Numbered from the stretch's first letter, positions 5,424-52,641 are shown. The stretch is DNA of 58,217 bases from a virus (IMGVR_UViG_3300029825_000010:1-58217); one strand, 5' to 3'. Numbers and translations are program-made. The notes: generated by a model from the sequence alone, not told the origin.

Positions 5424-5433
5424 GTGGTAAAAT

Positions 5434-6555: not shown

Positions 6556-6566
6556 GAGAAATTAAA

Positions 6567-8132: not shown

Positions 8133-8153
8133 TATGGTCATAGGAGTTAAATT

Positions 8154-8384: not shown

Positions 8385-8397
8385 GCAAGGAAATAAC

Positions 8398-9302: not shown

Positions 9303-9317
9303 ACAGGAGAAAATATA

Positions 9318-9872: not shown

Positions 9873-9893
9873 TGTGGCCTATGGAGGTAGCAA

Positions 9894-10820: not shown

Positions 10821-10843
10821 AGAATCAACAAGAACACATAATC

Positions 10844-10890
10844 ATGGGGCTGACCCTTCTATAATATTTATTGGTTAGCCCCATTTTTTA
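10844..10890 (+). terminator. rho-independent terminator after tail tube genes
   Basis: ATGGGGCTGACC...GGTTAGCCCCAT stem followed by TTTTT. Confidence 0.7.
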
Positions 10891-10906
10891 TTTTAAGGAG
10901 GAAGAT

Positions 10907-29854: not shown

Positions 29855-30199
29855 CTAATCTTCCTTTTCCTCGAAGTATAGTAAAGCCATTGCGTTCCAG
29901 ACAACGGCAGCAAGATGGTCTTCGTTATCTTGACCTTCGAGGTATTGTATCAAGTGCCTGAACATGGATTGCTTGTATCGCTCTATATCTTCTGGCGTTG
30001 AAAGCTTCTTCCAATTGTCTCTTCCATACTTCTTTAGTCCGTTGACATAGTGTTGTGTTATGCGATTGAGCGCAAGGATTGGGAGCAGTGTATAGTCAAG
30101 TTTATCTTCTGCGCTGTCTCGATTGCCACCGTTTTCATTGACGTGCATGCCCTTGCCTGATGTAGTGACTGAAATATATTTATGCTTCATCGGCTTCAC
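29855..30199 (-). CDS. dATP/dGTP diphosphohydrolase domain protein (DUF5664)
   Basis: KLDYTLLP, GLKKYGRDNWKK, SMFRHL, HLAAVVWN motifs. Confidence 0.85.
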   Translation of the reverse strand: MKPMKHKYISVTTSGKGMHVNENGGNRDSAEDKLDYTLLPILALNRITQHYVNGLKKYGRDNWKKLSTPEDIERYKQSMFRHLIQYLEGQDNEDHLAAVVWNAMALLYFEEKED

Positions 30200-31844
30200 C
30201 TATACCAAAGATTTCTGGATATTTTGATTGCAAGGCATCAAGAACCATCGTCATTACTTGCCGCATATTTGGATGTGCCGCTTTTGCGGTTCTTAGATTG
30301 CAAATTAAAAGCCATTCTCTTAAGTTGGCTGTCACAACAATTTCTGTCTTTACGTCTATTGGCAGAATGTCGCGGGCATCTTCTGGCTTTTTGCCGCCAA
30401 TAATGAGCGAGTTATAAGCTTCTTCTGCCATGAGTAAGCTGTATAGAAATATCTGTTCAGGTGCCAATGAACCAGGAGTTAAGTCATTGTAGCTGAACAC
30501 ACCTTCTTTAACATCAAGCCAGTGTGGAATAATAAATTCTACATGGCTCTGTTTATTGTAATTACAGAAACGTGTGCTATTGTGTGTAATAAAGCCATTC
30601 GCAATATAGTTATGATATGGCTCATTCATTGATATATCATAAGTTTCTTCTTCTCCAACATATTTTATTGAGACAACTTTATCGAGTATTTGTTTCATCC
30701 CTACATGCCAGCCATGATGCAATAATTTGTGACAATTACAGCAAACTTTTATGAGGTTTTTTTCATTATAATTACCTATGTCTTTATCGATATGATGTAC
30801 ATCTAATTTTTTGTTTTGTGCCCCACATAGCTCGCAAATAGAAACACTCTTTTTGATTTTACCTGAAATCTTTCTTTTGTCTTTCCACGTTAAAATACAT
30901 CCACTCCAATTTGAGTTTTTATCTTCACGACCATTATTATGGTGATTTTCTCTCAATGTTTTTGCTTGAATTTTAACGCTATCATTTTCGTGTTCAGACA
31001 AGCCTTTATTCCACACAACTCTTCCATTCAAAAACCCTTCTTTGATTTTTTTCCTCATTTTGTCAATAGATTCTTTTGTGTGGTTGTTTTGATATTTTTC
31101 TTTGTTTTTGTCATTTTTATGCTTAATGAATACACCTAATTTTTTGAGCCTAAGAATTACGCTTCTGTATGGAATCCCAAGTTTTTCTGATATCTCTGTC
31201 GGATTATTTTTATCATACATCAAAACAAGTTCTTCATCTGATATCTTTATAAGGCATGGGCGTCCATTTACAAATAGCTCATCATCAACATTTATGTTCT
31301 TTAGCTCAATGTATTCACCATTTTTGATTTTGAATTTATGGTTTAATGTCGTCTTTATTTTATACCCAAGACTTGTTGTTACTTCATAGACTGGCTGTAT
31401 TCCCTTATAGAAAACATCTGACATATTGTTTTCAACAATAAGTCCATCTTCATTTACGCTTCTCAGCTTAATTGTTTTATTGTGAGTTCTTCCATACTGA
31501 TTTGACTTTCTTTCGTATAGTTGTTTTATCGTTATATTTTTGCCTTTAGATTTTCTTACTATCGTATCTCCAGTAACACATTCCTGAGAAAAACTGGCAA
31601 TTCGATGACGCACAAGCTCGTGAGATACGCCTCTATTGGTTATGAATCTTATTGTGACAATGCAATGCTCAATGACAGATAGGTGATTGCGAGCTACAAT
31701 ACCCTTGATAAACTTTGTGGCAGAATCTTCTGTGATTCTATTCTCAGACTTATAGCATACTCGACCAATTCGCTCCAGCAACGAGTAAGCTTCTTGCGTT
31801 GGTATTATTTGTTCAATTATAACCTTCGGCTTAGTTAAAATCAC
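30180..31844 (-). CDS. thyX: FAD-dependent thymidylate synthase with intein
   Basis: RVCY, HLSVIEH, RGVSHELVRHR..SFSQE|intein|STRFC, EDARDILP, NLREW. Confidence 0.93.
   Translation of the reverse strand: MILTKPKVIIEQIIPTQEAYSLLERIGRVCYKSENRITEDSATKFIKGIVARNHLSVIEHCIVTIRFITNRGVSHELVRHRIASFSQECVTGDTIVRKSKGKNITIKQLYERKSNQYGRTHNKTIKLRSVNEDGLIVENNMSDVFYKGIQPVYEVTTSLGYKIKTTLNHKFKIKNGEYIELKNINVDDELFVNGRPCLIKISDEELVLMYDKNNPTEISEKLGIPYRSVILRLKKLGVFIKHKNDKNKEKYQNNHTKESIDKMRKKIKEGFLNGRVVWNKGLSEHENDSVKIQAKTLRENHHNNGREDKNSNWSGCILTWKDKRKISGKIKKSVSICELCGAQNKKLDVHHIDKDIGNYNEKNLIKVCCNCHKLLHHGWHVGMKQILDKVVSIKYVGEEETYDISMNEPYHNYIANGFITHNSTRFCNYNKQSHVEFIIPHWLDVKEGVFSYNDLTPGSLAPEQIFLYSLLMAEEAYNSLIIGGKKPEDARDILPIDVKTEIVVTANLREWLLICNLRTAKAAHPNMRQVMTMVLDALQSKYPEIFGIGEADEA
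30579..31580 (-). mobile_element. intein (334 aa) with HNH homing endonuclease in thyX
   Basis: starts CVTGDT, block B TTLNH, ends TYDI...IANGFITHN before Ser; internal CELCG...VHHID...N...NL...C.NCH. Confidence 0.92.
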
Positions 31845-33645: not shown

Positions 33646-34143
33646 TTACTCCTTTACATTAAGTATTCTGTCATCAAGATTTACTTCTTTAATTTCTTGG
33701 TCAAAATCAAGCTCGAATGGAAATAGTCTCTTGTCGGGAAGCCTTATGCAAATTGCAAGGTTTCCGCAAATATTTCTGGTGTCATTGTCGTTCCATTCGT
33801 GGTCAATTTTTTCCAGCCAACGATTTTGAATGTTACAGCCGTTGTTTCTTACCCAGCAATCACGCTTATTGTTTTTACCGTCGTTAATAATATCATTCAA
33901 TACAAGAATTTGATAAACGAACGCTTTTGTTTTCTTTCCGTCCGGTAATTGATTAAAGGTTGTGACAAGAAACTTCCAGATAAAGAAATCTTCGGTCATT
34001 TTATTTGGATTTTTGTTTTCTGCCCAGGCGTTTACTTTCTCTGTTATTTGTTTGTCGAGCCATGTAATGATTTTCATAAGCTCTGTTTCGGGATTAATTT
34101 CTACAGATAGATATTTCCTGTGTTTTTCAATTGGTATTTTCAT
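33646..34143 (-). CDS. hypothetical protein
   Basis: ATGA overlap with helicase ORF. Confidence 0.55.
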   Translation of the reverse strand: MKIPIEKHRKYLSVEINPETELMKIITWLDKQITEKVNAWAENKNPNKMTEDFFIWKFLVTTFNQLPDGKKTKAFVYQILVLNDIINDGKNNKRDCWVRNNGCNIQNRWLEKIDHEWNDNDTRNICGNLAICIRLPDKRLFPFELDFDQEIKEVNLDDRILNVKE

Positions 34144-35186
34144 ATCATTTCCATGTATGTATGTTTATTATAAGTGTTGTTACCAAATGAGCTAAAGCCT
34201 GACAAATATAGTGTTTCTTTTGCTCTTGTGATTGCCACATATGCAAGATTTAGCTCTGTATTTTTTTCTTCAAGAATGTGTGGGAAAATGTTGTCGGAAA
34301 GTCCGGTGACAAACACATTGTCAGATTCAAGACCTTTACTCCCGTGTATGGTTGACAGTGATATAACTCGCTCTCCAGCCGGAACGCAACGTGGTCTTGA
34401 TATTTCTGCTATTAGGTTATCAATTTCTGTCATAGTTTTACCGTGCTTGATAAATTCCGAAATGCTTATCAGGTTATCATCGGCAGATTCCGAAAAGTCC
34501 TTCATGCAGTCCATTTTAGATATTGAGTTTATGATTTGCGCTGGCTTCTTGCCCGCCAGCATTTGCATAATATCATCAAGGTCGTTAAGAACAGGCTCAT
34601 GCTTTCTGCCCAACTCACCGGTCATGACGTCTGTCTCGGACTTTCTCATGTCTATTAGGGTATTGTATAGAAGTTTCTTAGAATAAGGCGATAACAATGG
34701 CCTCATGTCGTTTATTGTGTTTGCTTTGCCGTCTATGTCAAGGTTATCATATTCCGTGACAAACCTACAGCAGGCAATCGCTAATTTTGCCTCCTTTGTA
34801 TTGAATATACTATTATTTTGGTTGATTGAGAACGGTATGTTTTGCCTAATTAAGAATAGTTGAAACATTACCGATTGGGCATTGGTTCTGTATAGAATTT
34901 TGATTGTTTGACTTGTTCCTTTGAATATCTTAATTGCTTGCTTGCAAACAAATTCAGCTTCATCAGACTGTGTGTCGAATATTGGAAGCTTAATAATTTT
35001 GCCCGCTGACTTATTTGCAGTATTAATAACTGTCTGGTCTATTTTTTCTGCTATTCGATTCCCTGCTTCGCAAATAGCTCTCGCACACCTATATGTTGTG
35101 GGCAAATTGAAAACACTTGCGTTGGGATAATAATGCTTGAAATTTGTGATTAACTCCGCTCCGTTGATGTATCTATGTTCTCTCAT
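34140..35186 (-). CDS. UvrD/Rep-like SF1 helicase, C-terminal part
   Basis: TYRC, ILYRTN, STIHGSKGLE, LAYVAITRAK (motifs IV-VI); own AAGGAAGG RBS. Confidence 0.88.
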   Translation of the reverse strand: MREHRYINGAELITNFKHYYPNASVFNLPTTYRCARAICEAGNRIAEKIDQTVINTANKSAGKIIKLPIFDTQSDEAEFVCKQAIKIFKGTSQTIKILYRTNAQSVMFQLFLIRQNIPFSINQNNSIFNTKEAKLAIACCRFVTEYDNLDIDGKANTINDMRPLLSPYSKKLLYNTLIDMRKSETDVMTGELGRKHEPVLNDLDDIMQMLAGKKPAQIINSISKMDCMKDFSESADDNLISISEFIKHGKTMTEIDNLIAEISRPRCVPAGERVISLSTIHGSKGLESDNVFVTGLSDNIFPHILEEKNTELNLAYVAITRAKETLYLSGFSSFGNNTYNKHTYMEMI

Positions 35187-35210: not shown

Positions 35211-35945
35211 TCATCCTGTGCGAAAATTAAAGATTTTTTGTTTGATGTCCCCAACAATGAATAGTTGCTTATATTTCTCCGCAAGCAACATAATAACGGC
35301 TATATCTGCATTGCTGGCATCTTGAGCCTCATCAAGAAAAATGTATTTCCAACGTTCTTGCCGGTTGTCCAAAATTGACGGGTTCTTTCTCAAAATATCA
35401 TAAGCCTTTAATTGAAAATCCGAGAATACAATTTTATGTTGCCTTTCTTTTTTTGCCTCAAACTCTCGCGCAAATCCAATCAACTTATGATTATTCTCAA
35501 AGAATGACAGGAGATTCTGGTCTCTGTCCTCAAGCATATCATAGTATTCCGGAAACATATTCTTAGCTAAGTCTATTCTTGACAGAAACTTGTTGTAGTT
35601 TGGATAGTCAATTTTAAGCTCTTTGAATATGTCAAAGACAAACTTCTTCTGATAACCATTGTCAAGAACAAAGTATCTCTTTGACGAGTTCTCTCTTATG
35701 ATTTGATACATTATAGAATGTATTGTGCCAACCGTAATTAGATGACCATTCTTTATGCGGCTTTTTAGCTCGTTTGCAGCATCGACGGTGAAACTGAAAA
35801 CCAGCATGTTGACTGGGTTGACTCCGTTATCAATACAGTGCTGGATTTTATTGACAAGCGTGTAAGTTTTCCCTGTTCCCGCTCCAGCCGTAACGACTAT
35901 TCCACCAAACATTGGTGTATTGTTAATTTCATCAATTATTGACAT
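35211..35945 (-). CDS. UvrD/Rep-like SF1 helicase, N-terminal part
   Basis: AGAGTGKT, FSFT..AA.EL, GTIHS, LDEAQD, VGDIKQKIFNFR (motifs I-III). Confidence 0.88.
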   Translation of the reverse strand: MSIIDEINNTPMFGGIVVTAGAGTGKTYTLVNKIQHCIDNGVNPVNMLVFSFTVDAANELKSRIKNGHLITVGTIHSIMYQIIRENSSKRYFVLDNGYQKKFVFDIFKELKIDYPNYNKFLSRIDLAKNMFPEYYDMLEDRDQNLLSFFENNHKLIGFAREFEAKKERQHKIVFSDFQLKAYDILRKNPSILDNRQERWKYIFLDEAQDASNADIAVIMLLAEKYKQLFIVGDIKQKIFNFRTG

Positions 35946-36532: not shown

Positions 36533-36969
36533 TTCTCACCTCCCATCTCCAGAGCCCGCTCTGCCCAGTATGCCTGAAATTGAGCAAAAGAATTAAATAA
36601 CATTGGGAACTCTTCCAATTCGCAGGACACACCCTGAGTATAAGCATCCCCAATATATTCTCCTATGAAATACAAGTATCCTGACTTGTCAAATACGTAT
36701 TTGTTTTCGTCGTCCCAAACAGTAACGTTATCTCCAATTGAGTTTATTCCGGTTTCGCCAATGCCATACAACCAGCACTCATCGCCAACTTTAGCATTCG
36801 TGAAATCGGGGGTTAGCGATGAGGGGGTAAGCCTTTTAATACTGATACATTTCCTCCCATCGCTTCCCGCTATGCGACAGACCATAAGCCCTCTACGATA
36901 TGCGGGCTGTTCAATCTGCATGTATGCACCATCACAAATTGCCCACTGTCCTGTCTTGAACTCACTCAT
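36529..36969 (-). CDS. hypothetical protein
   Basis: AAGGAG RBS. Confidence 0.6.
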   Translation of the reverse strand: MSEFKTGQWAICDGAYMQIEQPAYRRGLMVCRIAGSDGRKCISIKRLTPSSLTPDFTNAKVGDECWLYGIGETGINSIGDNVTVWDDENKYVFDKSGYLYFIGEYIGDAYTQGVSCELEEFPMLFNSFAQFQAYWAERALEMGGEK

Positions 36970-37001
36970 GTTTCGCTCCTTTCTTTAGTTAGATGTAATC
37001 T

Positions 37002-37289
37002 TCACGATTCATATCCATTGGACAACGCCCAAGAGTCTATGTCGTCAAGCATACTAATGCAAACTCCAGCGAGTTGGGCAAGCTCGGTCTTGTATCTCTT
37101 GATTGCCATGTTCGTGTTTGCGTTTGCTCCGCTCATATCGAAATTGATGTTGCATACTTCACGTGCTACCTCGCCAAACTCTTCGGCAAGGATAGCAAGC
37201 CAATCAGCTGGGTGTCTGTTCTCTGGAAGTTTCCTCCCTTCGAGAGCTTTATTCCGTTCCGCAAGTATCAGTTCCATCGGATTTGTCAT
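37002..37289 (-). CDS. MazG-like nucleotide pyrophosphohydrolase
   Basis: WLAILAEEFGEVA...ELAQLAGV motif. Confidence 0.75.
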   Translation of the reverse strand: MTNPMELILAERNKALEGRKLPENRHPADWLAILAEEFGEVAREVCNINFDMSGANANTNMAIKRYKTELAQLAGVCISMLDDIDSWALSNGYES

Positions 37290-37483
37290 TTTTACCTTCT
37301 CCTTTTAAGTTGTCGAACAGCATCCAGTGGAGCGGTGGAGTGCTAATCCAGACCGTTACCCACAGCAACGCTGCTATGAATATAAAACCTTTCTGTGTTT
37401 CCTTCAGGGACAAGTGCCATCCTCTTTTCCAAAAAAACGGCTTATTGATTGCGACCATCGCACCTATTCCATACTTCATTTTA

Positions 37484-37657
37484 TCACCTAACCATTCCTG
37501 TGTTTATATTTTTGTGACCGCCAAACAGAAGCGTACCATCTTTATGTTTGCAGTCATTTTCAGTTTTTGGATGCACCCATGAGTATCCATATAGCGGACT
37601 ATAATCGCACGGCTCCATATCTATCCCGCAGATTGGGCATTTACGCGGTGGTGTCAT
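37484..37657 (-). CDS. 57-aa zinc-ribbon ORF (MTPPRKCPICG...)
   Basis: AGGAGG RBS in boundary repeat, ATGA overlap; below ORF-track cut-off. Confidence 0.5.
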   Translation of the reverse strand: MTPPRKCPICGIDMEPCDYSPLYGYSWVHPKTENDCKHKDGTLLFGGHKNINTGMVR

Positions 37658-37842
37658 TTCTCTTCCTCCTGTGCTGGGACAAGGTCATCTTCATTGTTTT
37701 CATTTGATTCCTCTCTTTTTGTTTTTATCTTACCAGTGCCATAGCCATTACAAAATGGACACCTTTTTAGCCCACGCACATTGGGTGCAATCTGCACTAA
37801 TCCTGTTCCATTGCATTTGGGACATGTTTCTATCTCAATCAT
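37654..37842 (-). CDS. DnaJ-type zinc finger small protein
   Basis: CPKCNGTG...CPFCNGYG. Confidence 0.65.
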   Translation of the reverse strand: MIEIETCPKCNGTGLVQIAPNVRGLKRCPFCNGYGTGKIKTKREESNENNEDDLVPAQEEEK

Positions 37843-38105
37843 TTCTCTTCCTCCTGATTTGTCTTCGATATTGTTTCTGTTCCAGATATGGATATACCGT
37901 CTTTTATCTTACGGATATACAGCACAACTTTGACAGATGTATTTTTATCAATATCTCCTCCGTATTCACGATACCATATTGTTTTGGTCGGATATGGTAT
38001 TAACGGTTCGCCCAAGTCTCCAACGCTATTAATATTGGGGAACAACATATCAATAGCGGCATTGACATGCTTATGCTCTGTTGACGTTCTGATAATTACT
38101 TTCAT
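37839..38105 (-). CDS. hypothetical protein
   Basis: ATGA overlaps at both ends. Confidence 0.55.
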   Translation of the reverse strand: MKVIIRTSTEHKHVNAAIDMLFPNINSVGDLGEPLIPYPTKTIWYREYGGDIDKNTSVKVVLYIRKIKDGISISGTETISKTNQEEEK

Positions 38106-38308
38106 TCAGCATACTCCATAATTTTAATTAACTCACTTGAATTCCATGTGCCAAAAATTGCTAATGCCAAATACAATAGGGATTCCAAGATGGATTTATC
38201 CAATACAAAGAATCCTATCACAGACAATCCTGCAAATGTGATTGCGGTTAGCATAGACAATATAAATGCCAAACTCATTACGATATAGTATAATTTTTTA
38301 GTATTCAT
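38102..38308 (-). CDS. two-TM membrane protein
   Basis: hydrophobic segments; RBS in boundary repeat. Confidence 0.6.
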   Translation of the reverse strand: MNTKKLYYIVMSLAFILSMLTAITFAGLSVIGFFVLDKSILESLLYLALAIFGTWNSSELIKIMEYAE

Positions 38309-38568
38309 TCTTCCTCCTGTGCTTTCAGCATGGCGTTAAGATATTGTCTAAGGATATGCACGATATGTAGCGTTAAGTAATAAGATTGCGCTTGCTCTGC
38401 ATAATATGATTCAGCTTGCTTGGCAAGGTCTTGTTCATGTTGCATTAGCTGAAACCAATAATCTTCCTCAGCCTGCTCTTCTCTTCTGCGTTCTTGCCAC
38501 CTTCTTTTAGCTAAATACTCTTCATATTCTTCCTGCTCGCGCTCTTCTTCTCTCTTATAATCAATCAC
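38305..38568 (-). CDS. Glu/Gln-rich hypothetical protein
   Basis: GTG start after boundary repeat RBS. Confidence 0.55.
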   Translation of the reverse strand: MIDYKREEEREQEEYEEYLAKRRWQERRREEQAEEDYWFQLMQHEQDLAKQAESYYAEQAQSYYLTLHIVHILRQYLNAMLKAQEEE

Positions 38569-38903
38569 TTTGTTTCTTCCTCCTGTGCCTTCAGCAGACC
38601 ACAGGAATCACACAGCAAATCCCAGCCATTATCGATATAGTAATTTATGCTTTCAGCTAAATCAGCATCTTTCATATAATGATAATATGTTGTGTTCACA
38701 ATGTTCATATCGTAATCAGCCAATACATCGTTAATTTGGATATGTGTCTTAGTGTCCCTGTCGTTAATTAACTCCACAACTATGTCATTATCTATCGTAA
38801 GCGTATGCCCTAAACACGGCTGGCATCGCAGCACAACGACCCGCGCCAATTCAATGCGATGTTTGTTGCTTAAGTGTTGTAGCTTTACGTATACCTTAAT
38901 CAT
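38565..38903 (-). CDS. hypothetical protein
   Basis: RBS in boundary repeat. Confidence 0.6.
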   Translation of the reverse strand: MIKVYVKLQHLSNKHRIELARVVVLRCQPCLGHTLTIDNDIVVELINDRDTKTHIQINDVLADYDMNIVNTTYYHYMKDADLAESINYYIDNGWDLLCDSCGLLKAQEEETK

Positions 38904-38944
38904 TGTGTTCCTCCTGTGCTTTTAGCATATCCCAATAGTTCTTT

Positions 38945-39733
38945 TTAGCTAATAAATAAATCACGTTGAAACTCCTTTAACTTTTTAAGTCTTTCGTGTT
39001 CTTTCTTATGGCATGATTTACACAGCGTAATACCGTTTGATATTTCATATCTCAGCGATATGTCAACACTCCAGGGTATTACATGATGAGCATTCAATCT
39101 CACGCCTATTGCTCCACATGCTCTGCAAGTGTAATTATCTCTTGTAAAGACACTGCGCCTCCAATTTTTATATTCAGGCAAACTTCTCTTTAGTCCATTG
39201 CGTATAGCTCTTTCTTCATCTGTCATTTCTGTATTCCACTGCTGATGATTATCTCCTCTGTTGAATACATGCCAGCATTTCATTGAACAAAATCTTCCAT
39301 GTCCGCGTATAATTTGATGAGGTTTTGCATAAAATGACTTATGGCAGACAAGACAATTTCTTGAAGTCTTTGTTGTAAATCCCGTGTCCCTACACGCAGC
39401 AGAACAATATTTGCTGCTATCAGAATAGGAATAAAATGACTTCCCGCATGTTTTGCAAAACTTTTCAATTTTATGGTTTCGATTGCTATTATAGCACGCG
39501 GACGAACAATACCTAATATTATAATTCCTGTTTGCTTCAGATGCTTTTCTATAATATGTCGCCCCACACACAGAGCACACATATTCAGCTCCATTTCTTT
39601 TACTTTTATCTGCACATTCTTTTGAACAGTATTTATTTCTTCCACATGCAATTTCGCTAGGACTACGATGAAACCTATTTCCGCAAATCAAGCACACGCA
39701 ATTATTATCTTTTACTTTTGACATTTTGTCCAA
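38945..39733 (-). CDS. HNH endonuclease with four N-terminal CxxC...YCS..C zinc-ribbon repeats
   Basis: WRRSVFTRDNYTCRACG...LNAHHV...NGITLCKSCH. Confidence 0.88.
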   Translation of the reverse strand: MDKMSKVKDNNCVCLICGNRFHRSPSEIACGRNKYCSKECADKSKRNGAEYVCSVCGATYYRKASEANRNYNIRYCSSACYNSNRNHKIEKFCKTCGKSFYSYSDSSKYCSAACRDTGFTTKTSRNCLVCHKSFYAKPHQIIRGHGRFCSMKCWHVFNRGDNHQQWNTEMTDEERAIRNGLKRSLPEYKNWRRSVFTRDNYTCRACGAIGVRLNAHHVIPWSVDISLRYEISNGITLCKSCHKKEHERLKKLKEFQRDLFIS

Positions 39734-39876
39734 CTATCAATATCATCTTTATTAAAACGATGATACTTCCCAACCCTAAGAGATGGCATGCCATTGTCAA
39801 TAAGACGATAAATCTGTCTAATAGACACACCAAGATAGCTTGCCAACTCTCTTACTGTTAATAATTTGACTTCCAT
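39712..39876 (-). CDS. excisionase-like HTH_17 DNA-binding protein (start moved to ATG 39876)
   Basis: LLTVRELASYLGVS..QIYRLI..GMPSLRVG..HRF; AAGGAG RBS. Confidence 0.8.
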   Translation of the reverse strand: MEVKLLTVRELASYLGVSIRQIYRLIDNGMPSLRVGKYHRFNKDDIDSWTKCQK

Positions 39877-39921
39877 TTTAATCTCCTTGTTGGTGTCAAG
39901 AATACACAGCGTCATATCTTG

Positions 39922-41064
39922 TCAAGCATTTTCTTTAATTTGCGCTTTTAGCAGACCTTCTACAAGCCCACGGGTCGGGGCGTCGAGGCTGCTAATGCGG
40001 ATTGTGGCTATGGTTTTGTCGTCAACACCAATAAGATGAAACCATATATGTATTCCGTTAGTTGACACTGGTCTAACTGTACCACTCAGGCATCCGATTC
40101 TGACTACAATCTCGGAGGGCTTGAGCTTACGCAGTATCTCACCTGGAGATATTACTTCGCCATAATTCGTTTTGTAGCACCCCATGCCACCTAAATAATC
40201 AACAAGCTTTCTTTGTCCTTGTTTAGCAATACACTCCACCCAGTCGCCGACCTCAAACTGATCTTTGTCTGGCTCAGGTTTAATCTCATATCCTGTTCCA
40301 CCACAGCGTTTGCAGATAACGTAGTCTGGTTCACGAGGCGGCTCAGGCTCAGGCATTGGCATGTTGGCTTCCCTTTTTGTCAACTCCCAGTCTCCAATGT
40401 TCCACCATCTATATTTGCCATTGTTAAGGTAGGACGTAAGGCTCTCTGGTGTGAATATCAGGTCTTGATACCATGTCCTGATGTTCATGCCCTGCTCTTT
40501 TGCCCGCAAGATTAGATTTCTTAGGGGTCTCTCTTTCGGCTCTGGCTCAGGCTCTTTGTAGAGTTGCCAGCCGGTTTTGGCTACATCTTTTTTGCCAAAC
40601 TCAAGCTTGCTCCTGATTGTACCAATATATGCAAGGTTATCCATATCGTAATACTGGACATTCCCATCTTGGTTAAGTGCCAAATACACATTTCCAATAG
40701 CACCTTTGTAACTCACTTTCTTTCCCTGCATCATCTGATACAAAGCCCACCAGCGTGAGCCTTCATCTACTGGGCAGCCGATGATTTCAAGCGTATGGAT
40801 GCTTGCAATACAGTAGTCTTGGTTGAGGGAGTTTTTTTCGTATGCGTGTAGTGTATTGCTGTAAAATGGATTTTCTTTGATTTTTTGAGCAACAAACAGT
40901 TTGCCTATGACGTCAGAATAAGACGCGTCTTTGTTAAACATCCCCATCGGGCTATCATCCTGTATCAATCGCACAAGACACGGCATTTCTGCGTCTGGCG
41001 TTAATGGTACGGGCTCATCCAGCATGCGGAAAAGCTCGCCATCCTGTTCCTTGAAATTAATCAT
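39922..41064 (-). CDS. mosaic hypothetical protein with PEPEP linkers
   Basis: three EPEP-type linkers, CxxCGGTG segment. Confidence 0.6.
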   Translation of the reverse strand: MINFKEQDGELFRMLDEPVPLTPDAEMPCLVRLIQDDSPMGMFNKDASYSDVIGKLFVAQKIKENPFYSNTLHAYEKNSLNQDYCIASIHTLEIIGCPVDEGSRWWALYQMMQGKKVSYKGAIGNVYLALNQDGNVQYYDMDNLAYIGTIRSKLEFGKKDVAKTGWQLYKEPEPEPKERPLRNLILRAKEQGMNIRTWYQDLIFTPESLTSYLNNGKYRWWNIGDWELTKREANMPMPEPEPPREPDYVICKRCGGTGYEIKPEPDKDQFEVGDWVECIAKQGQRKLVDYLGGMGCYKTNYGEVISPGEILRKLKPSEIVVRIGCLSGTVRPVSTNGIHIWFHLIGVDDKTIATIRISSLDAPTRGLVEGLLKAQIKENA

Positions 41065-41066
41065 TA

Positions 41067-41330
41067 TTATCTCCTTGCATAAATTTGTTTGAATGAGTTA
41101 TTTTTTGAAAGACTTGCAATTTCCTTAATATATCTTTCAAGTTCTGCATCATCATAATCATTAAGATTTTGCCAATACAAAAACAGCGCAAGACCAACAA
41201 GGTAGCCTTGATTAAATTCACGGCCAAGTATTTCTATCAATGGCTGTGTGCATGGGATTGAATATGCAAGCAAATTATTTGATTCCCATACTTTATTCAG
41301 CTCACGCTTTAATTTAGCCATTGCACACAT
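41067..41330 (-). CDS. hypothetical protein
   Basis: ORF. Confidence 0.5.
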   Translation of the reverse strand: MCAMAKLKRELNKVWESNNLLAYSIPCTQPLIEILGREFNQGYLVGLALFLYWQNLNDYDDAELERYIKEIASLSKNNSFKQIYARR

Positions 41331-41983: not shown

Positions 41984-43510
41984 TTATCCTTCCATAAACT
42001 CTTTAAGCTTCGGGAACACAAATGTGCCGTCCACAGAGTTTGTTAGGTTCAAATTGCGAATAATACTAAGCGGAACAAAATACGCAAGATAAGGAATAAA
42101 TCCAACCGTAATGTCTATTTGATTGTGACCAAACCTATGCTTGGCTATTAGTATTTTGCTTATAAAATACGATGACGCAGCCTCTGTGCCCAACATAATT
42201 TTCTTGATGCCAACCGACCATTCACGATAAACAAAAATAACATGAGTGGCATCTTGCTTCAGGGCTGACGAGCCAAATAGCCTGTCAAGATTAGGTTTAT
42301 GAATTACTGCGCCATTTTTGTCACTCACCGGCTTGTTTAACTGTGAGAGAGCTATGGTGTGTGTCTCGAGACGCATGGCAAGCTTTTTGAGAAACCTTGA
42401 TACTGCCCTGTAAACCTCATCTTCACGCCTGTTTCTTCCACCATCCTTGACGTCCTCAACAAGTTGCAAATAGTCTATCACAATCAAGTCTATACTGCCG
42501 TATGTTGAGTACACCATATTGCTTTTGGAGTTGATGTCACGCAATGTGGACACATTTGAATCAACCATGAAGTTTGGTGCGACAGTAGATAGTTGACACT
42601 TGAAACTATTAAGCATTGCAATTTTCTCGGCTGGCGTCAACTCGGTCATAAACTTCTGGACTGTTATATTATTCTCAATACAGCAAAGCTTGGTGAGCAA
42701 TTCATCTTCCGTCATTTCAAGTGAGAAAAACAGTATGCGTCTATGCTCCCAAATTTCTTTGCCATTATCATCTAATCGTGGTCTGCCTGTATCGAGGTCA
42801 ATTACCTTCTTTTTTTGTTTGGCTATGTTCCAGGCAATTTGCAGGGATAGGCTTGTTTTTCCGTGACCAGTATCACCGGCGATTATTGTTTGATTGCCCG
42901 GAGCAAACCAAACATATTTATCAATCATCGGAATATTGGCATGAACTATCGTCTGGTCGCCGTCAACGCTGGACTTGTTTTTCTCAATCATGGTATCAGT
43001 AACATCCAGCAATGTGCGTGGTTGTTTCCTGTCCTTTTCGGAAAAGAACTCTGAATACTTGTTTATGATAGCCTGTAACTGACCAGCCGTTGCTTTTCCG
43101 TCTTTTGCAGTAGTTACGACATCAATGCCCATAGCATAATATTTCTCAACCTTGAACTTGTCCAGTATTATGTCCATGTAAGATTGAATATGCGAAACAT
43201 TTTCATTTGCACGGTATTTCTTAATGTTTGCTATCTCGTCACGGTGTTTACCTGTTTTGGGGTCAAGTAAATCCAATGCTATCTGGCCTGTGCTGTCTCG
43301 TGTGACCGACATTGAGTTTTCTACAGTAATATCCGTAATGTTGTGGTCATTTTCCCATAGCCACTTTATGCAACGCCACATCATCTTATACCTAAGCTCA
43401 GTGAAATGCCTTTCTTCCAAATATCTATTTGCAGTATCAAAGGCAGATTCACCATGATTAAGTATTATTGACAGGATTGCTCGCTGGGCTTGAGTGTAAG
43501 AATTTATCAT
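41984..43510 (-). CDS. dnaB: DnaB-like replicative helicase (start likely ATG 43510)
   Basis: AGDTGHGKT, FFSLEM, VIDYLQL, LSQLN, GSSALKQDA, KHRFG. Confidence 0.92.
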   Translation of the reverse strand: MINSYTQAQRAILSIILNHGESAFDTANRYLEERHFTELRYKMMWRCIKWLWENDHNITDITVENSMSVTRDSTGQIALDLLDPKTGKHRDEIANIKKYRANENVSHIQSYMDIILDKFKVEKYYAMGIDVVTTAKDGKATAGQLQAIINKYSEFFSEKDRKQPRTLLDVTDTMIEKNKSSVDGDQTIVHANIPMIDKYVWFAPGNQTIIAGDTGHGKTSLSLQIAWNIAKQKKKVIDLDTGRPRLDDNGKEIWEHRRILFFSLEMTEDELLTKLCCIENNITVQKFMTELTPAEKIAMLNSFKCQLSTVAPNFMVDSNVSTLRDINSKSNMVYSTYGSIDLIVIDYLQLVEDVKDGGRNRREDEVYRAVSRFLKKLAMRLETHTIALSQLNKPVSDKNGAVIHKPNLDRLFGSSALKQDATHVIFVYREWSVGIKKIMLGTEAASSYFISKILIAKHRFGHNQIDITVGFIPYLAYFVPLSIIRNLNLTNSVDGTFVFPKLKEFMEG

Positions 43511-43517
43511 GTTTTCC

Positions 43518-44063
43518 TCATTCGACAACAATCACGCCAAGCATCTCGTCTTCAGTTTCTTGATGAACTTCTGTGATTCCTGCCTGTCGTTCTGCTATCA
43601 TTTTAGACTTTATTTTCTCGTAGAGCGTCATTCCATCTTGGCGAGGTATCGCTACAGTATTAATTGATGTATTCAATATTCCTGACCAGAACTTGTCTGT
43701 AATTGAGTATGCAAGAACCTCAATAATTGTCTCGATATTTTCACCACTTCTCATCAACCTCCTAATTTGATTACGTGCGGCATCGGGTTTTGCTTTTATT
43801 GCTATTATCTGGCTCGTATTTACGCCTGTTTTAAGCTTTTCATCGGTAAACCAATCAATAACCAGCTTTGATATTATCATCTTATCTTTTTCTACGCAAT
43901 AACCTGAAAGGCTTTCCATCAGTGTAGATATTGATTCTCTGAAGTCCGTGCCAACATTATTGTCATGCTCGATTACCAACATATGGCGTCCCAAAGCGCC
44001 GGCAGCAACGGACAAGATTCTGTATGGAACGCCATCAATAATTAGTCGTGTGCCCTCTTTCAT
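43518..44063 (-). CDS. protein resembling the C-terminal domain of phage replication initiators
   Basis: IRRLM...IIEVL.Y...DKFWSGIL motif; directly upstream of dnaB. Confidence 0.45.
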   Translation of the reverse strand: MKEGTRLIIDGVPYRILSVAAGALGRHMLVIEHDNNVGTDFRESISTLMESLSGYCVEKDKMIISKLVIDWFTDEKLKTGVNTSQIIAIKAKPDAARNQIRRLMRSGENIETIIEVLAYSITDKFWSGILNTSINTVAIPRQDGMTLYEKIKSKMIAERQAGITEVHQETEDEMLGVIVVE

Positions 44064-45187
44064 TATTTTAACTCTCTTGGCAATGATTTGTAGAAATTAC
44101 AGAATTTGTTAACTGGGCAATACGATTCACATCTTGTTGATTTGGCAGGCCTTTTAATTATGCTAAACAAGCTCAATGCCTTCTGGTGCGAAGCATAGGG
44201 GTCTTTGCCTTTGTGTATTTCTTTCTCAGCTATTTTCTGTGCTTCCGCATCCATCCAAGATTTTGCCGCAGCATAAGAATACTCAACTTTGCTGGCCTTA
44301 ATGTTACCACGCTTCATGACAGCATAAGTATCGTGACCTTGCCACCTGTATTTGGCAGAACAAACCGGGATTGCATCGTCCATAACCATTTTGTATTTAT
44401 CAAACTCGGCAACCTTTTGTTCAATTATTTGCTCCACAATATCAAGACCAAGTAATGGTATTTCTATTGTCTCTATTGGGTCTGGATAATTGCGCTCACG
44501 TTTTGAATTGGTTTTTGAGTAATCACGCATAAGTAGGTTTATGTATAGTTTCTTGACTGGATACCCCTCATTCTCTAAGAAGAGTCTATACATATTTAGC
44601 TGGAGAGTCCAGTCCTCCATTGTTGAGTTGCCGGGCTGATTTCTGTATATCCATTTGTAAATGGAGCTAAACTTATAATCATGCAGGGATTGTTCTTCTG
44701 TGTCATATAAGTCAAAACCACCAGCCACAACCTTGCCTGTTTTTGTGACATACTTAAATCGTTTCTCAATTAGGTATCTCTCCTCGGGCAAGAGTGAAAG
44801 CAAATAGCCAAGACGTTGACCGGCTCCGACGTCACCATCTCCAATTATAAAGCTCATAAAGGCGGCTTCAATCTCGCCAGGGTTTTTGCTAACTTCACCG
44901 TTATGCACTTTCTCAAAGAAGGCTCGGACGCGGCTGAGAACAGTAAACTCCACATCGTGTTCGTTGGCTCGTTCAAGGATGGCATGCATCGCCGAGCCCA
45001 TGAGCATGTATAGTTTTTCGGAAACGTCCTCATCAATTTCGTGTTTATGTCGATTGAATAGGTGAAATGCTTTTGGCTCTTGCAGTAATTGTGTTACCGA
45101 ATAATCTCTCTTTTCTCCGGAGCCACTATACCAGTCTTTTTGCGCGGCTCGAACGATAGCTTCATTTAGGTGTTTGTCATTTCTCAT
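44063..45187 (-). CDS. Cas4-like PD-(D/E)xK exonuclease
   Basis: GSAMH..LE, GGFDLYD, DYK, QLNMY, C-terminal C...C.YCP...C. Confidence 0.8.
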   Translation of the reverse strand: MRNDKHLNEAIVRAAQKDWYSGSGEKRDYSVTQLLQEPKAFHLFNRHKHEIDEDVSEKLYMLMGSAMHAILERANEHDVEFTVLSRVRAFFEKVHNGEVSKNPGEIEAAFMSFIIGDGDVGAGQRLGYLLSLLPEERYLIEKRFKYVTKTGKVVAGGFDLYDTEEQSLHDYKFSSIYKWIYRNQPGNSTMEDWTLQLNMYRLFLENEGYPVKKLYINLLMRDYSKTNSKRERNYPDPIETIEIPLLGLDIVEQIIEQKVAEFDKYKMVMDDAIPVCSAKYRWQGHDTYAVMKRGNIKASKVEYSYAAAKSWMDAEAQKIAEKEIHKGKDPYASHQKALSLFSIIKRPAKSTRCESYCPVNKFCNFYKSLPRELK

Positions 45188-46627: not shown

Positions 46628-47488
46628 TTAGATTAGGTCTGAGTCTTGAGCTTGCTCTGAATTAGTATCAAAGCTTGCCTCAAATAAGTTGTGGTCGAAG
46701 CTCAAGCCAACTTTTTTCAGGTTTTTCTTAAGCAGTCTGATGCGCAAATCATCCCACGCCTTGCCTGAAAGCTGAATAGCCTTATGGTCTTTACTCATGA
46801 TTTTATCAAGAGCTTCTTGCACGGCCTTTGGCTCTTCTATATTATCATCAAGCATTTCTGCAAAGGACTTTTCCGTTTCAGGATGGTAAAACAGCACAAA
46901 ATCAAACACGGGCTGTGTTTCTTTCTCGTAATTTGGCATCCAGATTGTGGTGGCTTGAGACTTAGCATTCTCATATCCAACCGGGTCAGATTGCCTGCTC
47001 GGAATTGGGTTGCCGGTATAGCCATTGATGCCATAGCTGTCTGGGTATTTCTGGTAGAAGTTGAGGACTATGCCGACCTGCTTTCCAATCAAATCAACAT
47101 AGCTCGGGACTTCAATCTCACGTTCCACAAACTGTCCGTCAACAAATTCACCGTCTTTAATTCTTGTGGTTCCGATGGTGTCTCTTGCGCCGGTTATGCC
47201 AAATAGTGTTCTGAGTTTGCTGGCATAAAAGCCCTCGTCGCCATTTGCAGCACGGATATGTTTTGCGTCCTGACGATATACCTTACCGTTTGGCATCTGG
47301 AAGGCGAGGGTAATGAACACAGAACCATTCTTAGATTGGGATAAGGATGCCTGAGTAACTGTTACTACATATTTGCCAGAAACCCCACCAGACGGTGCAT
47401 CTGCCTTAGCAGCTGAATCGATATTTTCTTGGGAAGTCATGTCCATGCTCGGAAGGTTGCGGAAGTCGTTGATGTTGTTATTAGTCAT
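46628..47488 (-). CDS. putative single-stranded DNA-binding protein (DUF669-like OB fold)
   Basis: GKYVVTVTQA...SKNG...ITLAF, DLIGKQV; acidic C-terminal tail; adjacent to AAA ATPase. Confidence 0.55.
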   Translation of the reverse strand: MTNNNINDFRNLPSMDMTSQENIDSAAKADAPSGGVSGKYVVTVTQASLSQSKNGSVFITLAFQMPNGKVYRQDAKHIRAANGDEGFYASKLRTLFGITGARDTIGTTRIKDGEFVDGQFVEREIEVPSYVDLIGKQVGIVLNFYQKYPDSYGINGYTGNPIPSRQSDPVGYENAKSQATTIWMPNYEKETQPVFDFVLFYHPETEKSFAEMLDDNIEEPKAVQEALDKIMSKDHKAIQLSGKAWDDLRIRLLKKNLKKVGLSFDHNLFEASFDTNSEQAQDSDLI

Positions 47489-47839: not shown

Positions 47840-48592
47840 TTAAGAATCCTCGAATAGATATTTTACACTTGTTGATTTTCCGCTCCCGCTCTTGCCACAG
47901 ACCAGAATTGGTGAGGGCATAAAGTCGGGGTTATTTTCCATATCATAGTAATTGTAAATAGCACCAAGCACCAGAGACATATCATTCTGAATATATCTCT
48001 CTGCAAACATGCCATCGGGCGATTTGGCGGTATTTCTGCCATCTGTATTTGTGCAGAATTGATAAGCCTCTGCGCCTTGTTTGAGTGGATTGAAGCGTGT
48101 ATGCAAAACAATGGTAAAGAAAGACTCTATCTTTCCTTCCAGCTTCTTGCCATCAACCTTGACGACTATTCTGTCAATCGAATCGCTGTCACGGACAATT
48201 TCATCAAGAGCGGTGAATACAATGAACCTGCCTTTGGATTGCCAAGTCATTAGCAACTGCTCGAGAATATCAGAATACTCCCGCCAGTAATCATAGCCTG
48301 TGATTTTGTTTTGTTTCAGGAAATCTGATAACAGGTATAGTATTCTGGTGAAAGAGTCAACGACCACAATCTTGATTGGATTGTAATAGTCTGCCTTATC
48401 CTGCTCATTGGCTTTGAAGTCAAGCAGTCCTGAGCCTGCCCTCATTACCGCTTCAAATTGCTTCCACGAGGATATTGTCTTAATCTTACATCTCGCTGCC
48501 TGTCGAAATGGCAGGGTTTTGCGCTCGGTGTCAATGAACAATATCTCGTCCAGGGGCGCAGTTATCTTTTTGCTTTCGGGATGGTATTTCGT
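47840..48592 (-). CDS. Sak4/AAA_24-like ATPase, circularly permuted; apparent ACG start at 48592
   Basis: FIDTERKTLPF, VVVDS, TAKSP.GMF, QND; ILVCGKSGSGKS at the extreme C-terminus; AAGGAGG before ACG. Confidence 0.75.
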   Translation of the reverse strand, partial: TKYHPESKKITAPLDEILFIDTERKTLPFRQAARCKIKTISSWKQFEAVMRAGSGLLDFKANEQDKADYYNPIKIVVVDSFTRILYLLSDFLKQNKITGYDYWREYSDILEQLLMTWQSKGRFIVFTALDEIVRDSDSIDRIVVKVDGKKLEGKIESFFTIVLHTRFNPLKQGAEAYQFCTNTDGRNTAKSPDGMFAERYIQNDMSLVLGAIYNYYDMENNPDFMPSPILVCGKSGSGKSTSVKYLFEDS

Positions 48593-49192: not shown

Positions 49193-49924
49193 TTACCTCC
49201 TTTTATACCTTACATCAAATATAGTTGCTTGGAGATTCATCTTTTTTGAGTATTGAAGATGAGTTTTTTTATGACATTCTTCGCATAGAGTTATACCATT
49301 TGAGGGCTCAAATCTAAGTCCCTCATCAACGCTAAAGGGAATGATGTGGTGTGCGTTCAGTTTTCCTCCTTTTTTGTGACATTTCTGACAGATATAATTA
49401 TCGCGTGCGAATATAGAATTTCTCCAATCTTTCATTTTACCACAATTCCTATCACGCATAAATGATTCTCTGTCTGGATTTATTTGTGATTTACTATAAC
49501 ATTCTTGACTACAATACCTTTTTCCATATAAATCATAGTGTTTTTTTCTTATCCTAATTACTTTTCCGCAAAACTCACAGTTTATTTCAACGTGTTCTGA
49601 TTTTTCATTACCGCTTTGTGCTATTGACCTACATTTTACGGAACAATAAAGACGATTGTTTAGTGACGGTTTTAAGTATTGTATCTTTCCGCAAACAAGA
49701 CATGTTACCATTTTTTTGCCATACTTTTTTCGGCACTCATCAGAACAAAATACCTTTCCAGTATATGATTTTATTGGTTTTTGACATTCCTTACAGAAAG
49801 ATTCTTTTGTTTTGTGAGATAATAGGTAACATTCTCTACTACAGAATTTAGAATCGCCTCTTAATATTCTTGATTTATATGCACTGAATTGCTTACCACA
49901 CGCCTTACATATAACTGTAGTCAT
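49193..49924 (-). CDS. HNH endonuclease with zinc-ribbon repeats, paralog of 38945 gene
   Basis: four CxxC..CS..C repeats; WRNSIFARDNYICQKC...LNAHHI...NGITLCEECH. Confidence 0.88.
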   Translation of the reverse strand: MTTVICKACGKQFSAYKSRILRGDSKFCSRECYLLSHKTKESFCKECQKPIKSYTGKVFCSDECRKKYGKKMVTCLVCGKIQYLKPSLNNRLYCSVKCRSIAQSGNEKSEHVEINCEFCGKVIRIRKKHYDLYGKRYCSQECYSKSQINPDRESFMRDRNCGKMKDWRNSIFARDNYICQKCHKKGGKLNAHHIIPFSVDEGLRFEPSNGITLCEECHKKTHLQYSKKMNLQATIFDVRYKRR

Positions 49925-52009: not shown

Positions 52010-52417
52010 TCAGTCCTCTATTGGCAGGCAGATAATCGGGGGTTCGCCAATGCCAACTTTGAATAACATCTCACCGTCTGGCAGGTCGGTGTATTTGATG
52101 TCTTCTGAATATACAACCTCATCCTCATCATAATCAGGCGGCAATGGATACCCGAGACAATACAATGTGGCACGGTGATTCTCTATGCAAAGCTTCCAGA
52201 CTTGAGTATATTGTCTTTTCTCTTCAAACACCTTGCGAATCATCACAGCAATCTTGGCAACTAACCACGCACAATTAAACTTCTCCCGCAATTCCTTCAC
52301 GCCATCGGTAATCAAACACAAGCCCATGTTATAGTATTGACTCGTTCCCATTGGTGAGCCAAAACCTTCACAGAGATTCTTGGCATCGTTATTTTGTTCT
52401 ACAAAGTATTCTTTCAT
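52010..52417 (-). CDS. DUF6876-like protein (start likely ATG 52417)
   Basis: TDGV...AWL, I.YTDLP, CLP.E motifs. Confidence 0.55.
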   Translation of the reverse strand: MKEYFVEQNNDAKNLCEGFGSPMGTSQYYNMGLCLITDGVKELREKFNCAWLVAKIAVMIRKVFEEKRQYTQVWKLCIENHRATLYCLGYPLPPDYDEDEVVYSEDIKYTDLPDGEMLFKVGIGEPPIICLPIED

Positions 52418-52641
52418 GATTCTTCTCCTTCTAAAAACAGGCGGCATTTGATATAATATTCACAGAACTTTCTTGTGTCAAGCGGAATGACCCACTCACC
52501 AATTTCATTTCGTATCCCATTAATCCTGAGCATCACTGCATCATCTGGATACGATTGTACACACTCTTCTTTCCCATGGACACTGCCGTCAATGACCAGT
52601 ATCACGCCAATTCTCTCATCGATAAAGTATCTGTTACTCAT
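52414..52641 (-). CDS. hypothetical protein
   Basis: ATGA overlaps. Confidence 0.55.
   Translation of the reverse strand: MSNRYFIDERIGVILVIDGSVHGKEECVQSYPDDAVMLRINGIRNEIGEWVIPLDTRKFCEYYIKCRLFLEGEES

Follow-up and report, generated by a model that had tools for sequence, protein, structure and literature searches.

Coding ribosome-site linkers between unrelated small genes in a putative integrase-free, cassette-like array of a phage early region

Why should neighbouring phage genes that are otherwise unrelated end in nearly the same peptide? The question is raised by a run of mostly small genes at positions 37484–41064 of IMGVR_UViG_3300029825_000010:1-58217, an entire IMG/VR virus record of 58,217 bases (completeness estimate, 56%) that is referred to here as the window. 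Its structural genes occupy the plus strand as far as ~25 kb and its early and replication genes the minus strand from ~25.8 kb on; the run belongs to the latter, downstream of a gene for a DnaB-type helicase (41984–43531). All its genes are on the minus strand, in the order 380 amino acids (aa), HTH_17, HNH, 112 aa, 87 aa, 68 aa, 88 aa, 62 aa and 57 aa (Table 1). An initial annotation had described the region as an integrase-free array of gene cassettes, a description that our sequence comparisons support in the form of a cassette-like array. On balance, we favour the reading that the genes form a translationally coupled, cassette-like array, in which each joint is a translation-initiation region and the 9–22 nucleotides (nt) of identity shared by the joints probably steer exchange.

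The shared ends are evident in both peptide and DNA. The proteins finish in PAQEEEK (62 aa), NQEEEK (88 aa), MLKAQEEE (87 aa), LLKAQEEETK (112 aa) and LLKAQIKENA (380 aa), as had been read initially, and BLASTP among the array proteins gave matches solely over the last 8–9 residues (E > 0.1). With up to three mismatches allowed, the 22-nt pattern TGCTRAARGCACAGGAGGAAGA was found three times in the window, each time with at most one mismatch and on the minus strand (38309–38330, 38575–38596 and 38906–38927), and not once in 100 shuffled windows; these near-identical copies bear out the claim that the shared sequence carries the AGGAGG ribosome site of the next gene. Weaker copies lie at 37654–37675, 37839–37856 and 39930–39957; chance would give no copy at all. 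A repeat search returned a 30-nt family of four copies (38301–38330, 38567–38596, 38898–38927 and 39924–39953), the last of which is more diverged and forms the end of the 380-aa open reading frame (ORF), as well as a 23-nt family of four copies that includes 37660–37682. Moreover, CAGGAGGAAGAGAAATGA occurs as a perfect 18-nt pair at 37654–37671 and 37839–37856; since the copy labelled J1 contains the 18-mer of J2, a perfect direct repeat flanks the 62-aa gene. The tetrapeptide LKAQ occurs three times in the 17,328 four-residue windows of the 96 ORFs called in the window, in all three cases within the last 12 residues. The similarity also proved significant against codon-aware shuffles, none of 2000 within-gene codon shuffles having given three genes one common in-frame 12-nt word in their last 12 codons. 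GCRCAGGAGG is found at four window sites, all at 37674–38919 and thus within 1.3 kb, and the same strand holds 21 AGGAGG sites.

The joints are uniform in layout. Stop and next start overlap by 4 nt (ATGA or GTGA) in five consecutive genes, from the 112-aa through the 57-aa gene, and the genes are predicted from these overlaps to be translationally coupled, as annotated initially. The ribosome site lies 6–10 nt upstream of the start codons, and the core common to all joints is CAGGAGGAA, of 9–15 nt. ATGA overlaps are frequent throughout the early region, there with different tails. No inverted repeat was found at any joint, RNA folding of four joints gave z values from −1.31 to +1.22 with no stem-loop or hairpin, and a scan for promoters and terminators found none there. 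A second, different linker pair, GAAGGAGARRAATCATGA (minus strand, 52414–52431 and 52638–52655; two matches, none expected), encodes the tails …EGEES and …EGEKS, each followed by a stop, and brackets a 75-aa gene in another ATGA-coupled run of small genes; judging from this pair, shared joints may be a general habit of the phage.

The source of the motif could be traced in related loci, taken from two viral contigs and 73 metagenome loci that encode relatives of the 380-aa protein. The related loci yielded 613 crudely called ORFs, which single-linkage clustering placed in 268 families; family counts are approximate throughout because clustering made one false merge (ORF family 0 wrongly took in the 88-aa family via chimera L094, and its counts include a few non-members). 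Forty-eight metagenome loci matched the C-terminal domain of the 380-aa protein. The stop codon was on the contig in 44 of these, which ended almost invariably in …TR(E/K)LVE(S/G)LL(K/E/R)AQEEE(K) with AGGAGG within the last codons, the conserved tail in relatives being LDxxTRxLVE(S/G)LL(K/E/R)AQEEE. Thus, the long form of the repeat (…GLLKAQEEE) is the native, protein-conserved 3′ end (…LVEGLLKAQEEE, then stop) and Shine–Dalgarno site of the 380-aa family. Across 30 distinct tails of this family, entropy at codon positions 1, 2 and 3 of LVE-x-LLKAQ was 0.65, 0.26 and 1.09 bits respectively. The third position being the most variable, selection seems to act on the peptide together with a ribosome-site constraint and not on a conserved DNA site, contrary to the DNA-level conservation proposed initially.

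The same variation bears on whether the repeat could be a cis-acting RNA signal, that is, a translational operator or processing site by which a phage or host factor co-regulates the genes, much as is proposed for SAS, the start-associated sequences of Cluster K mycobacteriophages. Its position directly upstream of start codons would suit such a signal, as would its inclusion of the Shine–Dalgarno core and its conserved flanks, which we take not to pair with 16S rRNA from comparison with the anti-Shine–Dalgarno sequence. Nonetheless, third codon positions are free to vary across relatives, the four folded joints have no conserved secondary structure and the long form is confined to three or four adjacent joints in this genome, so we regard an RNA signal as very improbable.

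The 380-aa family is abundant and often multi-copy, with tandem paralogs frequent in relatives (three in L031, two in L057), and it both heads the array and recurs inside it. It is multi-domain, ranging from ~220 to 633 aa and conserved towards both termini but variable in between, and its small beta-barrel domains gave weak KOW/Tudor/S17-like matches. Searches against Pfam and PHROG returned no match to the family, a profile search of the PDB gave at best S17-like barrels (only E >= 0.0077), and Foldseek against the PDB gave nothing at E <= 0.001. An AlphaFold model from 33 sequences (mean pLDDT 72.8, pTM 0.43) places the tail in the C-terminal helix (residues 362–379). A Tad2-like (PF11195) anti-Thoeris identity was considered and set aside: one of ten members matched, below threshold (E 0.0088; 17 bits, cut-off 25), and Atlas structure rows were under the bar (TM 0.48 by row), leaving the lead unconfirmed.

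One copy of the repeat, 38906–38927, follows the stop codon of the HNH gene and had been taken as a non-coding element that argued for conservation of the DNA itself. It is indeed non-coding now, but it is no intergenic element: comparisons identify it as the original tail of the 380-aa gene, displaced when a mobile HTH–HNH cassette severed it. The HTH–HNH unit (38928–39940) interrupts the 380-aa tail, with the left end of the insertion supplying the present stop codon, and is surrounded by a 13-nt direct repeat (39941–39953 and 38915–38927; 12 of 13 bases identical). Empty versions of the site exist. In L057, a 380-aa homolog passes via the sequence of 38906–38927 directly into a 112-aa homolog, and two contigs of public run X1 pass from 38927 into the letters that follow 39953, with an overhang of just 11 letters. 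The left end of the cassette (~39916–39939), a promoter-like stretch with two TTGAC, occurs together with both genes at four other places, namely inside a 380-aa homolog (L065 and L070), behind another gene (L031) and between the halves of a helicase split in two (L057). By this distribution, the HTH–HNH pair is a mobile unit. A 37-aa C-terminal remnant of the 380-aa family follows the HNH gene in L070. In the window, 17 nt separate the HNH stop from the repeat; in frame, they translate as …KNYWDM-LKAQ and look like what is left of a further gene's tail. As for how the cassette arrived, an exchange between two tail copies fits equally as well as target duplication.

Free-standing HNH homing-endonuclease cassettes resemble this unit in being present or absent at one site and in occupying several sites in relatives, inside genes too. 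A 13-nt terminal duplication is atypical of homing, and such a cassette accounts for just one pair of repeat copies (39941–39953 and 38915–38927), not for the array. The cassette also brings up a site-specific system, integron-type or endonuclease-driven, whose enzyme would recognise the repeat: the HNH cassette sits within the repeat, in relatives it also sits within the 380-aa gene, and double-strand breaks there could stimulate exchange of nearby genes. Against this, no tyrosine or serine recombinase, and no recombinase or integrase at all, was matched in Pfam or PHROGs among the 30 window proteins scanned, in agreement with the integrase-free character claimed initially, the only hits of a related kind being the HTH that resembles an excisionase and, within the thymidylate synthase ORF, a weak PHROG match labelled ‘recombinase’. 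Furthermore, the joints have neither an inverted repeat nor an attC-like hairpin, the HNH cassette is also found at unrelated sites (between helicase halves and after another gene), and most related arrays have no nearby HNH gene. We therefore give a site-specific system hardly any credence.

Elsewhere in the window, a helicase gene matching phrog_1967 is split on the minus strand into ORFs 24 nt apart (35211–35945 and 34140–35186), and in L057 an HTH–HNH cassette (6521–7470) lies exactly between the helicase halves; the split in the window may be an empty or vacated cassette site. A second HNH endonuclease gene matching phrog_1271 is at 49193–49924 (minus strand). Finally, a 554-aa minus-strand ORF (30180–31844) matches thymidylate synthase at its start and end with an HNH-like stretch between, which could be an intein or an inserted endonuclease.

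If the joints are places of exchange, gene content should change there, as the initial annotation had supposed, and it does. For 62 members of the 380-aa family an ORF was called downstream, and these ORFs fall into 31 families. The gene directly after the 380-aa homolog is a 57-aa homolog in L002, L046, L047 and L080, a 62-aa homolog in L037, L087 and L089, a 112-aa homolog in L057 and an 87-aa homolog at both copies on contig G001, and in other genomes many genes absent from the window succeed it. Homologs of the 88-aa gene have different upstream neighbours in 4/4 cases and different downstream neighbours in the 3/3 that are known; the small array genes thus seem, from their arrangement, to act as separate modules. 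The closest relative, L027, is 96% identical across 3.4 kb upstream and has only the 88-aa and 57-aa array genes in common with the window, identity beginning and ending within a few bases of ATGA overlaps. Comparison of the window with L027, G001b, L057, L002 and L037 revealed insertions, deletions and replacements bounded by the repeat.

Counts of breakpoints agree with these comparisons. Among 16 loci, 22 of 29 ends of blastn homology within 37600–38950 (contig ends excluded) fell in the six joint zones, which make up 11.5% of that interval, versus 3.3 expected under a uniform null that counts near-duplicate loci separately. Under the same null, the ends of contig pieces from public runs lay in joint zones in 24 of 36 cases versus 4.2 expected, among the pieces listed (32 of 391, chosen by the tool, from four runs and four studies; Logan contigs, not raw reads). 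Further junctions appear on contigs of run X5, where the 57-aa gene meets a 380-family tail (…KSLLEAQEEEK, then stop), the 62-aa gene meets the 380-aa gene, and a J5-type tail meets the 88-aa start. One contig joint that ‘goes back’, from 41076 to 39983, lies outside the array. At 43 of 90 AGGAGG joints, GCRC stands immediately before AGGAGG, and these 43 connect 14 upstream with 28 downstream ORF families.

Tails, too, have passed between genes. Of the 613 ORFs, 63 have an LLKAQ-type tail; 45 of these belong to the 380-aa family and the remaining 18 to nine further families. One such family, of ~290 aa, ends in GWLKAQEEE(K) in the seven members whose end is visible, with eight different downstream neighbours in nine cases. 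Each of the 18 database relatives of the 112-aa protein finishes with GLL and a K(A/E)(Q/R/K)-like stretch. What comes after GLL takes 13 different forms, and the residues beyond that stretch take at least nine (EEEK, EEECQ, EEYKQ, KEVQE, EEKQND and others), a variety indicative of many kinds of downstream joint. In the 87-aa family, at least four kinds of tail occur (NAMLK(A/E/S)QEE, NAI(L/I/T)EK(Q/H)…, GGWLKAQEEK and C-termini that are longer and replaced). The final ten codons of the 62-aa family (EDD(L/I)(V/I)PAQEE) recur on an unrelated 97-aa ORF of L027, where the next gene differs. Because tails are shared by unrelated genes and downstream genes are swapped, two classes of breakpoint can be proposed from the alignments, one at or just after the ribosome site, at which the downstream gene changes, and one just upstream of the tail, at which a new body would receive the resident tail. 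In addition, L094 (327–512) is an in-frame chimera of a 380-family N-terminus and an 88-aa-family C-terminus, and P0018, P0023 and P0025 are in-frame chimeric small proteins with the N-terminus of one family and the C-terminus of another; exchange thus occurs inside genes too and not at joints alone.

Could the peptide itself be what is kept, as a functional C-terminal tag (…LLKAQEEE-COOH) that gives early proteins a common partner, localisation or turnover and leaves the DNA repeat as a by-product? In three ORF families with captured tails (54, 66 and 6), substitutions in the five LLKAQ codons number at least six synonymous and no non-synonymous versus two synonymous and three non-synonymous in the five codons upstream, although these counts are small, and the tail of the 380-aa family is modelled within a confident terminal helix and is selected at the peptide level. 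However, the K-A-Q positions vary (KAR, KEQ, MAR, KAK) in 7 of the 18 relatives of the 112-aa protein, most members of the 87-aa family dispense with the tail, most joints bear no more than AQEEE or QEEE, residues accounted for by the ribosome site in frame, and no known motif was matched. A tag is, in our judgement, improbable.

Under the reading we favour, these hyperplastic (fast-changing) small early genes would be read as a single translationally coupled string, each joint being made up of the final 7–10 codons of the gene upstream, AGGAGG in frame as the ribosome site, and a stop that overlaps the next start (ATGA). Most breakpoints would fall inside or just after the ribosome site, so that the upstream gene keeps its tail and the downstream gene is replaced, and some just upstream of the tail, in a ‘tail capture’ by which a new body inherits the resident tail. 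The linker would persist because it starts translation of whichever gene comes next, and an exchange would be viable only if both the ribosome site and read-through of the upstream gene were kept. The 9–22 nt of identity between joints would probably put exchanges in register, by microhomology or by Sak4-like annealing, and one joint would have been split further by the mobile HTH–HNH cassette bracketed by the 13-nt tail repeat.

The comparisons show how the joints are built, where the motif came from, how gene content differs at the joints, that tails are shared and that the HNH cassette may be present or absent. That homology from joint to joint guides exchange is what we infer from several sequence features: the joints stay uniform although gene turnover is high, one and the same linker stands between different partners on both sides, and genes for a Sak4-like protein, an SSB and an exonuclease lie nearby, so that the Sak4-like system invoked initially is present. 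Phage annealing proteins, in the portions of the sources drawn on here, recombine short, diverged sequences (PMC5499656, PMC5928155, PMC3945230).

Several findings weigh against such guidance. Mean identity of the 24-nt tail copies is 0.70 within loci (21 pairs) versus 0.71 between loci (1932 pairs), and thus shows no sign of gene conversion or recent exchange within a genome. Evolution of the tail at the peptide level, with third positions the most variable, weakens the case as well, and a common core of 9–15 nt is short for recombination by annealing proteins. Tail-capture joins need a breakpoint on the outer 5′ side of the repeat, at a point where no repeat homology is common to the partners, and one breakpoint of the most recent exchange between the window and L027 lies in mid-gene, at 40538 in the 380-aa gene and off the joints. 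Besides, the uniform null for breakpoints is naive, as selection alone favours joins at gene ends, the listed contig pieces are a chosen 32 of 391, and the ORF family counts are approximate. Of the short-homology exchange proposed initially, the swaps at the joints stand, while the identities and the outer-edge breakpoints count against the repeat as their substrate.

These points lend weight to a model in which the joints are scars and nothing more: illegitimate recombination and in-frame deletion would occur anywhere, selection would keep the ribosome site and the coupling, and the tails would be remnants, mainly of 380-aa paralogs. A gradient of remnants runs from full genes through the 37-aa remnant in L070 to tail-only copies fused to other genes, and the common tandem paralogs, the in-frame chimeras (L094, P0018, P0023 and P0025) and the lack of homogenisation among copies within genomes are all as expected of scars. 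So is the difference between the 87-aa tails of the window and G001b, which starts at the outer edge of the repeat with 2–5 nt of microhomology. The proposal that the 87-aa tail is a simple deletion scar was nonetheless weakened, since other tails of the family (NAILEKQKEEK, NAIIEKQEEE) resemble the LKAQ form and each other, which makes the deletion reading insecure. Moreover, the joints are very uniform despite turnover (4-nt overlaps, constant spacing of the ribosome site, no leftover spacers), which in-register exchange fits better than random joins followed by trimming, and the same linker of 15–37 nt stands between differing upstream and differing downstream genes. We consider scars alone a possible but on the whole unlikely explanation. 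Somewhat more doubtful still is the strongest version of homology guidance, in which the linker is a portable recombination module and Sak4-like annealing excises, inserts and reorders promoterless genes in register; if true, the phage would have an integrase-free, always-expressed cassette system for accessory genes, perhaps for counter-defence, with the shared C-terminal peptides as its footprint.

Table 1. Genes, repeat copies and recombination functions of the array region, with positions in the window
Feature	Position	Strand	Remarks
380-aa family gene	39922–41064	minus	last residues …TRGLVEGLLKAQIKENA, then stop; tail copy J7 at ~39930–39957
Left copy of 13-nt direct repeat, TGCTAAAAGCGCA	39941–39953	minus	brackets the HTH–HNH insertion; start-to-start spacing 1026
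HTH_17 (excisionase-like) gene	39712–39876	minus	first gene of the HTH–HNH cassette; Pfam HTH_17, E 3.3e-10
HNH endonuclease gene	38945–39733	minus	cassette gene; Pfam HNH PF01844, E 3.1e-10, above cut-off; phrog_1271, E 6.7e-37
J6, right repeat copy	38906–38927	minus	currently non-coding; displaced 380-aa tail; ribosome site of 112-aa gene
112-aa gene	38565–38903	minus	ends GLLKAQEEETK, then stop; tail J5 (38575–38596) is the ribosome site of the 87-aa gene (GTGA overlap)
87-aa gene, acidic, coiled-coil-like	38305–38568	minus	ends LNAMLKAQEEE, then stop; tail J4 (38309–38330) is the ribosome site of the 68-aa gene (ATGA)
68-aa gene, predicted membrane protein	38102–38308	minus	ends …MEYAE, then stop; ATGA overlap; outside the motif family
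88-aa gene	37839–38105	minus	ends NQEEEK, then stop; J2 (37839–37856) is CAGGAGGAAGAGAAATGA
62-aa gene, zinc ribbon	37654–37842	minus	ends EDDLVPAQEEEK, then stop; J1 (37654–37675) contains the 18-mer of J2
57-aa gene	37484–37657	minus	last of the coupled run; directly after the 380-aa homolog in several relatives
Sak4-like single-strand annealing protein	47840–48541	minus	phrog_2872, E 2.7e-30
SSB	46628–47488		phrog_743, E 8.8e-09
Exonuclease	44063–45187		phrog_2139, E 7.8e-37

Two genes of the array call for further comment. The 68-aa protein is a singleton among the related-locus ORFs. Homologs of the 57-aa gene in L002 (1597–1770) and L080 (~650–822) carry an in-frame TAA in place of a tyrosine codon of the window (…YSPL-stop-GYSWVHP…), the frame being conserved beyond it; the TAA could be a shared nonsense mutation or be read through. 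G001 (the contig of L001; 68 kb) holds two syntenic, diverged copies of the early region, at 1–12000 and 52000–68172 (L025 and L024), mostly too diverged for blastn, and its first base is inside the 87-aa gene; it looks as if the assembly had gone around a circular or concatemeric genome and carried on into a second strain.

The phage region was found in 20 public runs from 11 studies (landfill, wastewater, fermentation and sludge), each run holding 22–34% of the sampled words of the region (best 0.34, for 36900–41200); stretches of a run without contig cover do not count as absence. Megablast of 36900–41100 against the phage record collection gave no match. An exact scan of viral contigs with a 20-nt motif returned ten stretches, one in a relative (L012, which is the contig of L002) and the other nine within unrelated coding sequence, whence the motif is lineage-specific. 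With the DnaB helicase as anchor, the G001 contig alone was recovered from the viral contigs. A scan of genome contigs with alignment A2 gave five loci, all on short contigs, three of them the contigs of metagenome loci; L100, L103 and L104 are the contigs of L031, L057 and L070. Metagenome-assembled genome labels of contigs from this phage group are inconsistent (one Methanolobus, others Pseudomonadota and Kiritimatiellae); they are probably the result of mis-binning and give no host.

How does the array compare with known systems? Closest in behaviour is PeSL of T4-type phages, a repeated promoter-early stem-loop unit that, in the part of the account drawn on here, bounds shuffled small genes (Arbiol et al. 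2010, PMC2839356). As portrayed in that part, both pair a short repeated expression signal with small genes of unknown function in hyperplastic regions without an integrase, and in both the gains, losses and replacements between close relatives are bounded by the repeated signal. The PeSL unit is, by the same partial account, an intergenic promoter and terminator hairpin that makes each cassette its own transcription unit, whereas the repeat here is coding, carries a ribosome site and is followed by 4-nt overlaps; a promoter and stem-loop of the PeSL kind are absent from the joints by the scans and folding above. Mini-circles are shown in the portion available for PeSL, in contrast with the array here, which is known from contigs alone. 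PeSL cassettes of T4-type phages are reportedly also the subject of work by Comeau et al. in 2014.

At the level of the signal, the nearest likeness is SAS of Cluster K mycobacteriophages, described, in the part of the paper used here, as a 13-bp consensus, GGGATAGGAGCCC, found throughout the non-structural arm with a proposed role in translation (Pope et al. 2011, PMC3203893). On that limited account, SAS and the linker are both asymmetric, contain a Shine–Dalgarno core, lie a few bases upstream of the starts of varied non-structural genes and have conserved flanks that rRNA pairing does not account for. Between GGGATAGGAGCCC and TGCTRAARGCACAGGAGGAAGA, however, the AGGAG core alone is common; SAS is spread over the arm, as portrayed there, versus the four clustered GCRCAGGAGG sites here; and the portion used makes no tie between SAS and shared C-terminal peptides or gene exchange, whereas the linker has a local long form derived from the 3′ end of one family, with synonymous variation.

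Integron arrays are one-directional series of promoterless small genes, varied in content and bounded by a repeated element, and the array shares with them the one-directional string of promoterless small genes and the repeated boundary. Integron attC sites are, however, imperfect inverted repeats that fold as hairpins, of which the joints have none, and integron cassettes are separated by recombination sites whereas the genes here are coupled via overlapping stop and start codons. Without an integrase among the 30 scanned proteins or any attC-like structure, the array does not look like an integron. A literature search, supplements not covered, found no description of phage ribosome-site linkers with tail transfer, which is weak evidence of absence. 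The array is a variant of known phage modular shuffling, with a ribosome-site coding linker as the repeated unit.

Lambdoid phages provide examples of conserved gene-boundary sequences. The array raises the question that such sequences raised, as it has short shared sequences exactly at module boundaries, and differs from those cases in that its boundary is repeated within one genome, is coding, can be traced to a donor gene and comes in dozens of natural variants. In the parts of the literature drawn on here, the debate on mosaicism opposes boundary sequences that target homologous recombination to illegitimate recombination with selection (PMC3945230, PMC3974807).

The finding thus bears on the long-standing debate over whether the mosaic joints of phages arise by homology at short boundaries or by random joining followed by selection. 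For this debate the phage group is a natural test bed, with a traceable 20-nt coding linker in dozens of variants from landfill, wastewater and fermentation metagenomes, cassettes small enough for sequencing and an annealing recombinase encoded by the phage itself. It also brings to light a little-described side effect of gene replacement: because the ribosome site lies within the end of the preceding gene, replacement hands short C-terminal peptides from one unrelated protein to another, and peptides shared in this manner can mislead homology searches and annotation.

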